DNA of 64,000 nt from Candidatus Hodarchaeota archaeon. GTDB taxonomy: Archaea; Asgardarchaeota; Heimdallarchaeia; Hodarchaeales; Hodarchaeaceae. The stretch is from positions 32,001 to 96,000 of the forward strand of contig JAEOTC010000086.1 of NCBI GenBank assembly GCA_016840035.1. The letters are read 5' to 3'. The first letter of the stretch is position 1. Each line of letters opens with the position of its first letter. The translations under genes were made by a program, and so were the position numbers. The notes under the pieces are model-generated. The model was given only the letters and a program-made list of their open reading frames with translations, did not search any database and was not told where the DNA came from. This document shows positions 425-4,616 of this stretch, piece after piece.

Positions 425-603
425 TGGAGTTCACAAAGGTCACAATTTTTGAAATTATAAATAATTTCGGATTCCAGATCCTAGAAGTACAGCTTTTTCG
501 GGGATATCTGAAAGGAAAAAGATCTTCATGAATTTCGATAAACATTTGAATCATGAGTTATTTCATTGAGGCTAGTTCACTAGAAGAAATCTAGTTTTGT
601 GAT

Positions 604-1218
604 GTGACCAAAATGAATATTAAGTATAATACACGAATGGTTGTCCTTTTAGCTTTTCTTATTGGAGTAACCATTTCATCTATGGTTCTTATTGGGTTTG
701 GACAATATGTTAATGCCTCTACAACCAAAACTCAATATCCCAGCTATAGTTCAGTTTCTATGAATCTGTTTGTTGAAGGGATTGATGGTGAGTCAATTAT
801 TGCGGGTCGAGAAAAGTCAATAACTGTTCTAGGTTATTCTCATAGTATTAGTAATCCATATGATTTGTTTACTGGAGATCTTACAAGCAAACAACATTCC
901 CCTCTCCGCGTAATGAAGCTAATTGACAAATCAACTCCAAAACTTCAAGAAAAATGTGTTAAAAATGCCGTTATCCCTACTGTAACTTTACGGTTTTATT
1001 TTGAACCTGCTGGATTAAATTTCTACACGATTGAATTAACTAATGCCAAAGTAACATCCTTCCAGGGATTTGGTACGATATCTGCTGATGAAATACCGAG
1101 AGAAACTGTTTCTTTCACCTATGAATCCATTAAATGGACTTATACCGAATATGATGATGCAGGGAATCCCAAAGGAAATGTTGAAGCTGAAGACAATTGG
1201 ACTGATCAGCCAAATTAG
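604..1218 (+). CDS. hcp: Hcp1/TssD-like tube protein with N-terminal signal/TM segment (start may be ATG 613)
   Basis: GIDGES, QHSPLRVMKLIDKSTPKL, FYTIELTNAKVTS, ETVSFTYESIKWTY are Hcp motifs; hydrophobic N-terminus ending VNA. Confidence 0.85.
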   Translation: MTKMNIKYNTRMVVLLAFLIGVTISSMVLIGFGQYVNASTTKTQYPSYSSVSMNLFVEGIDGESIIAGREKSITVLGYSHSISNPYDLFTGDLTSKQHSPLRVMKLIDKSTPKLQEKCVKNAVIPTVTLRFYFEPAGLNFYTIELTNAKVTSFQGFGTISADEIPRETVSFTYESIKWTYTEYDDAGNPKGNVEAEDNWTDQPN

Positions 1219-1229
1219 GTTGAGTAATC

Positions 1230-1892
1230 ATGAAAATGAAGAATAAGCAGGTATTAACACTCACTTGCCTTCTTTTTGTCTCATCTTCCCTTTTGACTCT
1301 TACAAATGCCCATATAGTTTCATCTGCTGTTTCTATCCTAGAAGTAACTCAGAATGGTTCAAATATCATTATCACTCTTGATTTTAATCTTTCTATTCCA
1401 CCAGATAGAGGAGAAACAAAATCTTTAGTGGTTTTAATACTGTGTCCTCTTATTCCAGAAGAAACAAATAGTTATAGTGGAGCTATGTTGTTTTTTCGTT
1501 CTCCAGATGGAGATAATCGATTATTTTGGATGTTAGGAGACCCTTTTTCCTTTGAAACCATATGGAATTCGGGGAGTAATCCAGAACACTTCAGAATCGA
1601 TCAGAATCAACTTCTATTGGTATTTATAGAAAATATGCAAACCTCACATTCCAACCTTGAGGTTCAAGTTTTTGCTAAATATCAAGAAATTGAACCAATT
1701 TCTGATTATTCAAGCGATTTTCAACCAATTTTAACGTTGTTTCAACCTGATCTAGAATTCCAAAGATTAGAAGTTGAATTTACAAGTTTGGATCAAACCA
1801 CAACTACTACGAGTGATAAAGGATTCCCAGGCCTATTACTTCCTATAAGCATAGGAATCATCGCACTCTTAGGGATAATACGACGAAAGTAG
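1230..1892 (+). CDS. Secreted surface protein with PGF-CTERM-like sorting signal
   Basis: N-terminal signal peptide; C-terminal TTTTT linker, GFPG, TM helix, RRK. Confidence 0.7.
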   Translation: MKMKNKQVLTLTCLLFVSSSLLTLTNAHIVSSAVSILEVTQNGSNIIITLDFNLSIPPDRGETKSLVVLILCPLIPEETNSYSGAMLFFRSPDGDNRLFWMLGDPFSFETIWNSGSNPEHFRIDQNQLLLVFIENMQTSHSNLEVQVFAKYQEIEPISDYSSDFQPILTLFQPDLEFQRLEVEFTSLDQTTTTTSDKGFPGLLLPISIGIIALLGIIRRK

Positions 1893-1940: not shown

Positions 1941-4616
1941 TTACCCAATAAATTCTTTAGAGATCAACGACAATTCTAATTTAAACAGTGATCTTAATGC
2001 TGGAAATTGAGTAACCAAACTAGTAAATAATATCATCAGGAAGATGAATATGAGTGAATTCAATTCAAAAACGGTTTGAAAATAGACCATTATCGGAAAC
2101 ATCGTATTTACAATGACTTCTGTTAGTTGAAATCCAAAGGGAATTCCTAGGATCAACCCAAACAGAGTCAGAATGAGGTATTCTGATGAAAATAAGATGA
2201 TGATTTCTCTATCGGAGGATCCAAGTATCTGCATGGTAAGTAATTCTTTCTTTCTTTCGTGGATATTAAGGAAAACCGTTGTCGATATCGATAAGATCGA
2301 GATAATAATTGCTACAATTATCAGAAGCAGTATTAAAACATTAAATATTTGTAAATAAGCTTTTATTCCTTCTTGAACATTTTCTATGGTTAAAATTGAT
2401 TGAACATCATTCAAAGTATGTAGAAGATCATTAACGACCTGTGATTGGATACTTTTACCATGTGAACTAAGTTTGATGAAGATCTTAGATACCGGTGTTA
2501 GATCGATCCCTAGTTCTGTGAAAAGACTCAATCCTAATAAAGTGCTCATTTTTTCCAAGGAAACATAATTTACGGTTCCCCAAAGCTCTTTTGAGACTCC
2601 ACCTATAGAAATACGGCTATTCTTACTAAGTAATTGTGTACTTGAATTGTAATTAAAGAGATATGAGCTCTCATTAAATTGCTCTTTTAACAAGTTCAGA
2701 GTGAGGTTTTTTCCGTTCTGGAGATAAAACAAACGCAGCCAGAGCTCCTCCTCAAGACTAATAATCCTGGGGTGATTAACCACAATTTCATTTACCTCCT
2801 TCCCTTCGATACCAAGATAATTTACCAATCCTGAAGTAAGTACAATGCTCGATTCTGGATTTTCCCAACGGTCAGAAAATTTCTTATTCCAATTGAAATT
2901 ATGAGTATTAGGGGTTGTGGAATTAAATCCTATTAATACTCCTTCATTTGATTTCTTCATATCTCCAGAAAAGTATTTTACAGGAATTTCCAAAACACAG
3001 TCATAAGTTTCTATCCCATAGGTATCTTTAATTTCCTCTAACTTCCCTATCTCTTGATAGAGAGTAAGATCACCTAATTTTGGTCTTGTAAATGAGACTT
3101 CTAAATCGTAATCTCTTATTTGGCTAAATTCAGTCTCTATCGTGGAAGATGCAGAAATAATCAAGGTAAAGGATAAAAAGAGGATAATCATTGTACTGGC
3201 TGCTCCAATGATATTTGTCAAACTTCTCCAGCCATTTCTGATTGAATTTCGAATTAATAATTTCCAAACAATGTTTAAATGCAATCTATCCAATGAACTG
3301 AATTTTGCGTACTTTCCAATATTTACCATTTTATTACTGTTACTTATGGCTTCTTTTGGGTTTAATCGACTTCCAACCCAAGCAGGATAGAATCCTCCTA
3401 TAATTGAAGCAAAATAACCTAATAAACATGAGTAAATAATAGTAATCTCATCCATTTTTACAGATATATCTGGAATGGAAGAAATAGCACCGAAGAAGCT
3501 AGCTACTACTTGTGTGAATAGCACCCCTACTACAATTCCTAATAATCCTCCAATGGTTGCAATAGATAACATATAAACTGAATAATGGAACAGAATATCG
3601 TTAGGTGTGTACCCCAAGGACAAGAAAACTCCGATTTCATTTTTCTGATGGTAAATGAGTCGATTAAATGTAATAAAAATGGTAAGAATGGCTACTAGAA
3701 GCACAAGAAAGGGTAAAAACTGAGCTATTTCCTTAAATCCATTAATATTGAGTCTTATAAACCAATTAGAGATCTGATATTTTGAGGATACTGGATCAAG
3801 AAGACTAACATTCAATGATTCTGAAATCAACTCAAAATAATCTTCAATTATTTGGTTCTGCTTTTGTTCTGTTGTTTCTGACTTGAATTTCAAGAGAATA
3901 TTATTTACTTTCCCAGTTAGGTTAAACACCGTCTGGATATTGGATAGAGGCATGAAGAAGATCCCATATTGGTTTATTGGGAATATTGAGCCCCACTTAG
4001 AAGGAATAACAACCACATATTCTGGTGAAAAAGCAATTCCTCGCACACTTAGCTCTGTTCTGTCCAAAAAATTGAGATATACTGTATCATTTATTTCCAG
4101 ATTTACTCGTTTAGCAAATTGATTATTCACTATGACTTTGTTTGTATATTCATCCGTAATATTAGGATAACCGTCCGATGTACTAAACGCCTTCCCTTTT
4201 TTCAGAGATAACTGATTAATCTGTTGATCGACTGGCACACTAATATTATATCCAATAACCCTCCCTGGACCCGTAATAGGATTACTCCCCTTGGAGATGT
4301 TATAACTACTTCCCATTATCAACCGAAAATTAAACAACTGGATGGCTGGGTATTCGCTGTGAAAGTCCTCACTGAGTCGTCTCAGAAGACTTTGATTAAT
4401 CCATTGTCCCTCACTGGCTTGAATCTCAAAATCATGAAAATTTTGCTCCTTATAAAATTCCTCGTATGAGTACTCAAGAGACTGGTAACCCATCACCAGA
4501 GCGATGTACGATGCTACTCCGATAATGGTTAAAAGAAGGAGAGAAGTTACTAGTAACTTATTTTTCTTTGAATCTCGAAGGAGGATTCGGAAGAGATGTC
4601 GTGTTATAATTGGCAA
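1941..4616 (-). CDS. FtsX/MacB-like ABC transporter permease (two repeats)
   Basis: KNEIGVFLSLGY and ERKKELLTMQILG motifs, large extracytoplasmic domains, multiple TMs. Confidence 0.85.
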   Translation of the reverse strand: MPIITRHLFRILLRDSKKNKLLVTSLLLLTIIGVASYIALVMGYQSLEYSYEEFYKEQNFHDFEIQASEGQWINQSLLRRLSEDFHSEYPAIQLFNFRLIMGSSYNISKGSNPITGPGRVIGYNISVPVDQQINQLSLKKGKAFSTSDGYPNITDEYTNKVIVNNQFAKRVNLEINDTVYLNFLDRTELSVRGIAFSPEYVVVIPSKWGSIFPINQYGIFFMPLSNIQTVFNLTGKVNNILLKFKSETTEQKQNQIIEDYFELISESLNVSLLDPVSSKYQISNWFIRLNINGFKEIAQFLPFLVLLVAILTIFITFNRLIYHQKNEIGVFLSLGYTPNDILFHYSVYMLSIATIGGLLGIVVGVLFTQVVASFFGAISSIPDISVKMDEITIIYSCLLGYFASIIGGFYPAWVGSRLNPKEAISNSNKMVNIGKYAKFSSLDRLHLNIVWKLLIRNSIRNGWRSLTNIIGAASTMIILFLSFTLIISASSTIETEFSQIRDYDLEVSFTRPKLGDLTLYQEIGKLEEIKDTYGIETYDCVLEIPVKYFSGDMKKSNEGVLIGFNSTTPNTHNFNWNKKFSDRWENPESSIVLTSGLVNYLGIEGKEVNEIVVNHPRIISLEEELWLRLFYLQNGKNLTLNLLKEQFNESSYLFNYNSSTQLLSKNSRISIGGVSKELWGTVNYVSLEKMSTLLGLSLFTELGIDLTPVSKIFIKLSSHGKSIQSQVVNDLLHTLNDVQSILTIENVQEGIKAYLQIFNVLILLLIIVAIIISILSISTTVFLNIHERKKELLTMQILGSSDREIIILFSSEYLILTLFGLILGIPFGFQLTEVIVNTMFPIMVYFQTVFELNSLIFIFLMILFTSLVTQFPALRSLFKLELSLISKEFIG

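Follow-up and report, generated by a model that had tools for sequence, protein, structure and literature searches.

The stretch of DNA analysed here, called the window in what follows, comprises 64,000 nucleotides of a Candidatus Hodarchaeota archaeon (C28:32001-96000, that is, contig JAEOTC010000086.1 of GCA_016840035.1). The assembly is 4.3 Mb in size, is split into 293 contigs and is 87% complete. Near the left end of the window, two genes lie in tandem on the forward strand. The first encodes an Hcp, a protein known from type VI secretion systems (T6SS) and equipped in this archaeon with an N-terminal export leader; the second encodes a protein of an orphan family, hereafter the partner, with a signal peptide, a threonine-rich linker and a C-terminal transmembrane (TM) anchor. 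In textbooks, the T6SS Hcp has no signal peptide and leaves the cell as the tube of a contractile apparatus. Positions given without a contig refer to the window, and the features of the pair are the following.

537..552, + strand: A/T-rich upstream element, candidate archaeal promoter box; GATAAACATTTGAATC, conserved
613..1218, + strand: Hcp gene, 201 amino acids (aa) from ATG 613 (P0001); PF05638 9.7e-28, TIGR03344 4.6e-22
613..717, + strand: predicted export leader, residues 1-35; MNIKYNTR, a 22-residue hydrophobic helix, and V-N-A before S36
751..1197, + strand: Hcp beta-barrel domain, residues 47-195, from the AlphaFold2 (AF2) model, with a predicted local distance difference test (pLDDT) value of 90, and from Foldseek
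1219..1229, + strand: intergenic spacer of 11 bp, GTTGAGTAATC, read directly
1230..1892, + strand: partner gene, 220 aa, orphan family
1230..1310, + strand: predicted partner signal peptide, residues 1-27; MKMKNKQ, a hydrophobic stretch, and T-N-A before H28; conserved in the alignment, with a model helix at 4-18
1335..1790, + strand: partner ectodomain, a predicted beta-sandwich (residues 36-152) followed by two helices (165-187)
1797..1811, + strand: threonine run T190-T194, linker or stalk; residues 189-197 have pLDDT below 50
1827..1889, + strand: C-terminal anchor, P200-G201-L202, hydrophobic helix 202-217, R218-R219-K220; read directly

An earlier note on this DNA had described the Hcp reading frame with its leader, the 11-bp gap and a partner ending in a Thr linker, GFPG, a TM helix and RRK, and all of these are present where it had placed them.

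The longest open reading frame (ORF) of the Hcp gene runs from 604 to 1218 (+), with a GTG start and 204 codons for amino acids; ATG 613 is preferred by gene callers and by the homologues, and this start is shared by 32 of them (55-78% identity). PF05638 (T6SS_HCP) covers residues 57-180 of the 204-aa ORF with its positions 4-129 (of 129), at 97.5 bits against a curated cut-off of 23.5 (E 9.7e-28), and the ORF also matches TIGR03344 (TssD, NCBIfam) at 78.7 bits against a cut-off of 58.9. A profile built from 20 homologues retrieved 21 solved chain sequences, every one an Hcp or an engineered Hcp fusion, the best of them being 7fcf (E 2e-33). The AF2 model, based on an alignment of 73 sequences, reached a pLDDT of 90; in it, a flexible linker (30-46) joins a helix (residues 7-29) to a beta-barrel (47-195). 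When compared with the PDB by Foldseek, the model aligned with Hcp1 (1y12) at a root-mean-square deviation (rmsd) of 1.9 Å over 155 columns (TMt 0.85, E 1.3e-13), and the Hcp1 structures 1y12, 8yun, 4tv4 and 3eaa lie within 1.4-1.9 Å rmsd of the barrel at probability 1.00. There were 113 matches at E<=1e-3; each of those listed holds an Hcp, and three are engineered Hcp1 fusions. By its sequence and predicted fold, the first gene product is a genuine Hcp, as the note had proposed, and the profile search that it had suggested recovered the T6SS Hcp family with both models.

This is the single Hcp in the whole assembly. The base composition of the two genes (GC 0.35 and 0.34) is near that of the genome (0.36), which argues against a recent import. 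In the mature region, comparison with four orthologues gave 54-63 synonymous and 34-45 non-synonymous codon differences. The loop at residues 76-99 (window 838-909) reads SHSISNPYD...KQHSPLRVMK in Hodarchaeales-type Hcps and is strongly conserved, with H77 and H95 invariant; the bacterial relatives have WG.HKPGGGATGQSRRRG at this place.

The leader is the feature that sets this Hcp apart. Its layout, a K/R-rich head followed by a hydrophobic stretch of about 20 residues, recurs in 31/31 Asgard loci and in all 20 aligned homologues. In Hodarchaeales-type Hcps, small residues stand at −3/−1 (V-N-A, V-N-S, A-N-T, V-T-A and similar), followed by an S/T-rich stretch. In comparison with four orthologues, the leader codons are free of indels and vary least at their second position (3-6 changes, compared with 8-14 at the first and 11-14 at the third), a pattern that fits selection for hydrophobicity. 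Upstream of the gene, the A/T-rich element (GATAAGCATAAGAATCC) is found at equal distance in the four orthologous loci while the remaining upstream DNA is divergent, and it may be the promoter box of the operon. Since the leader is conserved, its changes are of the coding type and the upstream element precedes the long start, the true start is not downstream of the hydrophobic segment, an outcome that the earlier note had recognised as fatal to its proposal. Judged from these comparisons, the leader is translated and conserved, and it probably directs the protein to Sec export. Cleavage at V-N-A|S appears somewhat more probable than retention as an uncleaved N-terminal anchor, because the residues at −3/−1 follow the small-residue pattern.

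Two other readings of the N-terminus were discarded. A type IV pilin-like (class III) leader was ruled out, since G/A/S is absent at −1 before the hydrophobic stretch, and M50 was rejected as a relic start codon; this methionine presumably corresponds to a hydrophobic residue inside the first strand of Hcp1. In a related case, the Hcp of Ca. Harpocratesius repetitus (L027, MCF2140055.1) is deposited as a protein of 163 aa whose start lies 3' of the leader, while the open frame with the leader encodes 194 aa. The deposited entry is likely a start-site miscall that hides the export signal.

The partner gene begins 11 bp downstream of the Hcp stop, a spacing that implies co-transcription of the two genes. 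Neither Pfam nor NCBIfam holds a family for its product, and a full HMMER pass over 1.84 billion proteins found relatives in only 30 cluster representatives. An alignment of 33 members shows a signal peptide and a domain of about 150 residues, in which W112 and E134 are invariant. The AF2 model (pLDDT 83 overall, with most core blocks at 90 or higher) has a beta-sandwich, then two helices, a Thr linker that is disordered, and lastly a TM helix. Foldseek against the PDB returned nothing at E<=1e-3 for the partner. In a wide VIA-align search, the best match was the C-terminal domain of 1ulv (Z 6.6), and matches near Z 5 included CBM9, the cytochrome domain of cellobiose dehydrogenase and Ig V-set domains; the similarity is that of a generic beta-sandwich, and no family assignment was made. 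The S/T-rich linker is found in all members of the family, with highly variable length. The protein ends in TTTTT-SDK-GFPGL-LLPISIGIIALLGII-RRK, in line with the family tail of (P/S)-G-(F/L), a TM helix and a basic end, in which G201 is nearly invariant across the 33 members. A lipobox (LTLTC) in the partner was ruled out, being too near the N-terminus and unconserved.

The tail resembles the sorting signals recognised by archaeosortases, and the genome encodes such an enzyme. A heimdallarchaeosortase (NF045528) is found at C112:39924-40517 (-), with 278-279 bits against a cut-off of 130; it was also detected by TIGR04178 and not by PF09721 (Exosortase_EpsH). As to substrates, 23 ORFs of the genome score above the Heimdall-CTERM (NF045529) cut-off, and about 45 have a terminal tail made up of PG with a hydrophobic residue, a TM helix and a basic end, in most cases with an S/T-rich linker. 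The partner copy in the window has P-G-L-L-L where Heimdall-CTERM has P-G-F-E, and its last 50 residues matched no family in NCBIfam. Among the 33 partner relatives, 12 match Heimdall-CTERM and 4 match Loki-CTERM; the type of tail seems to follow the host lineage's sorting system. The description of the neighbour as CTERM-anchored thus stands in its architecture, with a tripartite anchor and a sortase in the genome, but not in the profile match, since the P-G-L tail itself is missed by Heimdall-CTERM although many orthologues are recognised. Processing of this tail by the sortase is therefore no more than plausible.

The pairing is a conserved trait. A profile search of 400 Asgard genomes found Hcp in 26 of them (G000 included), namely in 17 of the 21 other genomes of the same GTDB genus and, for the rest, in three further families. 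In 28 of the 31 distinct Asgard loci, the gene directly 3' of Hcp is an ORF of the partner family in the same orientation, and the two are −22 to +58 bp apart. The pair spans at least three GTDB families and more than one class, and the conservation check proposed in the note therefore came out in favour of a gene pair kept across families. When the ORFs within ±8 kb were clustered for 13 loci, only Hcp and the partner were common to them, and no third gene occurred in more than three loci. Two Hcp copies occur in each of five genomes, and all 9 copies examined (of 10) have a partner of their own beside them. The partner tree mirrors the Hcp subclades, with the partner diverging three to four times faster than Hcp. 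In an Hcp tree of 112 rows (quick method, unrooted), 29 Asgard rows lie on one side of a branch with 97% SH-aLRT support; these are all 28 partner-linked copies and L029. The partner-less Asgard copies L023 and L025 fall among bacterial-type sequences.

The closest loci elsewhere are 70-78% identical and carry the name Candidatus Hodarchaeota archaeon. Exact-sequence look-up identified Ca. Lokiarchaeum ossiferum, Ca. Harpocratesius repetitus and a Kariarchaeaceae metagenome-assembled genome (MAG) among the carriers of Hcp. The partner is directly 3' of Hcp in Ca. L. ossiferum (L030) and Ca. Harpocratesius repetitus (L027), and is absent after the Kariarchaeaceae copy (L025). The Hcp of Ca. L. 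ossiferum (UYP44157.1 / NEF87_000442) is named a hypothetical protein, and a second strain has a TssD annotation.

Around the pair, an 891-aa permease with two FtsX domains (MacB/LolCE-like; 1941-4616, -) converges on the partner gene and shares with it the T-run at 1936-1942, and a YbjQ_1 gene (74-424, -) diverges upstream. In one further genome (L003), YbjQ is again close to the pair. As neighbours, the permease and YbjQ are not conserved, and both were rejected as members of the module.

The genes of a contractile injection machine were sought with profiles for VipB/TssC, Phage_sheath_1, Phage_GPD (VgrG/gpD) and GPW_gp25, which gave the expected matches in the control genomes (E. coli and other reference genomes). 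None of these profiles matched in any of 22/22 genomes of the genus, that is, in the genome itself and 21 congeners. The congeners include G066 (4.9 Mb, 96% complete) and G074 (99% complete), and two of them, G066 among these, are assembled as one contig. In the single-contig Loki genomes G134 and G137, neither sheath nor gp25 was found. The statement that VgrG, sheath and baseplate genes are missing, made in the note for the window only, thus extends to the whole genome and to 21 congeners, and no complete injection locus was found outside the window. The sole machinery match in the search is a GPW_gp25-like ORF of 42 bits (L050, G138:C910:463-714, +), located on a 2-kb contig of a fragmented Lokiarchaeial MAG, which may be viral or contamination.

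A leader in front of Hcp is found beyond the Asgard archaea. The next relatives of the mature domain (30-42% identity) comprise ordinary Hcps of 159 aa and a form of 180-260 aa with an N-terminal leader. Among species-representative genomes, copies with a leader come from Bathyarchaeia, Dehalococcoidia/Chloroflexota, some of the Acidimicrobiia, Verrucomicrobiales and a small number of other groups, and the short form accounts for nearly all Planctomycetota copies and for all copies of Desulfobacterales and Gammaproteobacteria. The leader state switches at least 7 times on the Hcp tree. Orphan loci of the leader-bearing form include L056, L057 and L061 (Bathyarchaeia), L064, L074 and L125 (Dehalococcoidia), L092 (Acidimicrobiia) and L072 (Verrucomicrobiales). 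Three contexts of the long form were inspected, and none contained T6SS genes; two were of housekeeping character, and the third had an adjacent second Hcp-domain gene. A signal-bearing orphan Hcp is therefore present in this archaeon, as had been claimed, but it is not unique to it and belongs to a wider class in lineages that are not expected to carry a T6SS.

The partner is confined more narrowly. Its hidden Markov model (HMM), run against 79 loci of Hcp relatives, matched only five Hodarchaeota/Heimdall loci and none outside the Asgard archaea. Other neighbours were seen next to some leader-bearing Hcps. P0144 is a leader-bearing Hcp of 197 aa, followed after 43 bp by a 348-aa Hcp-domain protein, with an alpha-2-macroglobulin gene nearby. 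In two Dehalococcoidia loci (L064:1866-2747, +, and L074:1807-2751, +), the gene directly upstream of the leader-bearing Hcp encodes a conserved protein of some 300 aa whose N-terminus resembles a lipobox (..LIAC / ..LVAC), and this protein could be a different Hcp partner.

We propose that the two genes form an operon for a cell-surface module that works without a contractile injection machine, a reading to which we assign a probability of roughly 0.55. Because the leader is present, Hcp would cross the single archaeal membrane through a Sec-type route and would not be built up within a sheath in the cytoplasm. The exported protein would most likely form hexameric rings outside the membrane, and possibly short stacks, as its fold suggests. 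The partner would be an exported orphan beta-sandwich held on the outside of the membrane by a Thr-rich, probably glycosylated stalk and an archaeosortase-type anchor, and, being co-expressed, could retain or organise the Hcp rings at the cell surface. The parts of this scheme differ in strength. Export of Hcp and its independence from a T6SS are well supported, and it is quite probable that Hcp and the partner are an exported, T6SS-independent and functionally coupled pair. The proposal of a Sec-exported, T6SS-independent Hcp in the earlier note is accordingly upheld by the conserved, translated leader and by the absence of injection genes from 22 genomes. Formation of rings or tubes is suggested by analogy with known Hcps, and direct contact of the two proteins is presumed from their pairing. 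A complex prediction of Hcp 36-201 with partner 28-188, using both alignments, speaks neither for nor against binding (score 0.18, mark 0.32). Tethering of an Hcp ring by the partner is a tentative suggestion, to which we give slightly less than even odds.

Several observations weigh against this reading. The genome itself is only 87% complete. The tail of the partner (C28:33827-33889) is unmatched by NF045529 even at E<=10, so that it could be a plain TM anchor. Leader-bearing Hcps of Bathyarchaeia, Dehalococcoidia and Acidimicrobiia occur without any partner, and the partner is thus not required for an exported Hcp as such. At 22 residues, the hydrophobic stretch is long for a cleaved signal peptide, and Hcp might remain membrane-anchored. 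Finally, at three f6 loci, L023 (named Heimdallarchaeota), L025 (the Kariarchaeaceae MAG) and L029, the leader-bearing Hcp is accompanied instead by a large secreted protein (480 aa or more) unrelated to the partner and encoded downstream within 5-31 bp:

L023:1-1463, − strand: large secreted protein downstream of Hcp
L025:1836-3296, + strand: large secreted protein downstream of Hcp
L029:819-2266, + strand: large secreted protein downstream of Hcp

The partner HMM showed no similarity to these three proteins, which are also mutually unrelated.

The length of the hydrophobic stretch leads to the most serious alternative, in which Hcp is a type II (N-in) membrane protein with an uncleaved signal anchor and its neighbour is a separate co-expressed surface protein, maybe sitting on Hcp or merely sharing its regulation. 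The AF2 helix of 23 residues (7-29) is enough to span the membrane, a flexible linker of 17 residues follows it, and an N-X-S/T sequon at N34 is kept in many members. However, the signal peptidase I pattern, with V/A/I at −3 and A/S/T at −1, is also kept in Hodarchaeales-type members, including four that have no sequon, and a sequon very near the membrane is unlikely to be used by oligosaccharyltransferases. We regard this reading as a whole as rather unlikely. It is improbable that Hcp is instead a soluble secreted ring which carries or chaperones the beta-sandwich of about 17 kDa in its lumen, the partner being a leashed cargo and not an anchor. T6SS Hcp is known to carry small effectors in its lumen, and the partner ectodomain of about 150 residues is within the established size limit; the strict pairing, the co-duplication and the three- to fourfold faster evolution of the partner would also suit a cargo. 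Yet the partner has no toxin-like domain and only a generic beta-sandwich similarity, no conserved immunity-like third gene accompanies it, and a membrane-tethered cargo would have no evident target.

The incomplete genome and the gp25 match on the 2-kb contig of the Loki MAG G138 could be taken to mean that Hcp serves as the tube in an injection apparatus, contractile or non-contractile, that is unrecognised or highly divergent and is encoded elsewhere in the genome. This is very improbable, since the four core families of contractile injection systems are missing throughout the 22 genomes of the genus, the one-contig and 99%-complete ones included, sheath and gp25 were not found in the single-contig Loki genomes, the pair has no conserved neighbours, and an export leader is incompatible with assembly of a tube in the cytoplasm. 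Least credible of all is an annotation artefact or a decaying, horizontally transferred orphan, with its real start at M50 and a functionless cytoplasmic product. The 163-aa NCBI call for the Ca. Harpocratesius copy, which starts 3' of the leader, would agree with it, but the leader forms an open, conserved frame at 31 loci and shows coding-type substitutions, synonymous differences outnumber non-synonymous ones in the mature region (54-63 against 34-45 in four orthologues), the gene is kept in 17/21 congeners and its GC is close to the genome level. The cell-surface operon remains, in our judgement, the best explanation overall.

If this explanation holds, the Hcp fold is sent through general secretion in organisms without a contractile machine, which suggests that the tube fold has an extracellular role independent of such a machine. 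The pair also provides two specific candidates for components of the Asgard cell envelope, which is poorly understood. In L. ossiferum, the envelope has no ordered S-layer and is covered with unassigned surface densities (PMC9834061). Since the pair is encoded in this cultured organism, the idea is directly testable. More speculatively, and with doubt, Sec-exported Hcp may be a widespread and so far undescribed use of the phage-tail-tube fold in prokaryotes without a T6SS (Asgard archaea, Bathyarchaeia, Dehalococcoidia, Acidimicrobiia), the Asgard versions self-assembling extracellularly into rings or short tubes on a glycosylated stalk protein; these might be one of the unassigned densities that cryo-ET shows on the surface of L. 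ossiferum, and might serve cell-cell contact or exchange with syntrophic partners. For annotation, labels such as 'T6SS effector Hcp' in archaea and monoderm bacteria are not to be taken as proof of a type VI system, and at least one database entry starts the Hcp gene 3' of the leader. In the literature, we found nothing that describes an exported Hcp or an Asgard Hcp, and the supplements of the culture papers make no mention of Hcp.

Compared with the Hcp/TssD of bacterial T6SS (PF05638, TIGR03344; P. aeruginosa Hcp1, 1y12; A. baumannii Hcp1, 4w64; T6SS Hcp, 7fcf), the Asgard protein belongs to the same family by sequence and fold, and both share the DK(S/T)SPKL motif and a C-terminal YTEYD..G..KGNVE block. 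Unlike T6SS Hcp, it has a conserved N-terminal export leader followed by a 14-residue S/T-rich extension, a clade-specific conserved loop after beta-2 with its two invariant histidines, and a membrane-anchored orphan protein as its genetic companion (28/31 loci), and the genomes of the genus that carry it have no TssB/C, VgrG or baseplate genes. Thus, two features that define a T6SS Hcp, the absence of a signal peptide and the association with T6SS core genes, are not found here at the level of sequence. Phage tail tubes and the tubes of extracellular contractile injection systems belong to the same fold superfamily and are known as stacked hexameric rings. They assemble in the cytoplasm on a baseplate, whereas the Asgard Hcp is predicted to be exported chain by chain, in genomes without sheath or baseplate genes.

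On the partner's side, the closest likeness is to archaeosortase substrates (Heimdall-CTERM, NF045529/NF045528; Loki-CTERM, NF033507; PGF-CTERM, TIGR04125, with ArtA), with which the tail shares the S/T linker, the P-G-hydrophobic motif, the TM helix and the basic cluster. Partner orthologues match the CTERM model of their own lineage, and the host genome encodes the sortase together with no fewer than 23 bona fide substrates. Unlike Heimdall-CTERM substrates, the copy studied here reads FPGL, has no acidic residue after PGF and lies below profile detection.

The leader-bearing orphan Hcps of other lineages (P0070, P0105, L056, L064, L092) likewise have an Hcp domain behind an N-terminal hydrophobic leader and no T6SS genes nearby. 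They are 30-42% identical, lie on the other side of the 97% branch and have no adjacent gene of the partner family, and their sequences suggest a sibling class, undescribed as far as our searches show. Engineered proteins offer a last comparison. In the fusions 4ksr, 6ap1 and 7o42, retrieved by the PDB search, Hcp1 forms the C-terminal portion of the chain, and fusions of this kind are used to bring the protein at their N-terminus into a hexameric state. A leader or anchor at the N-terminus, as in the Asgard Hcp, should therefore be compatible with a ring.

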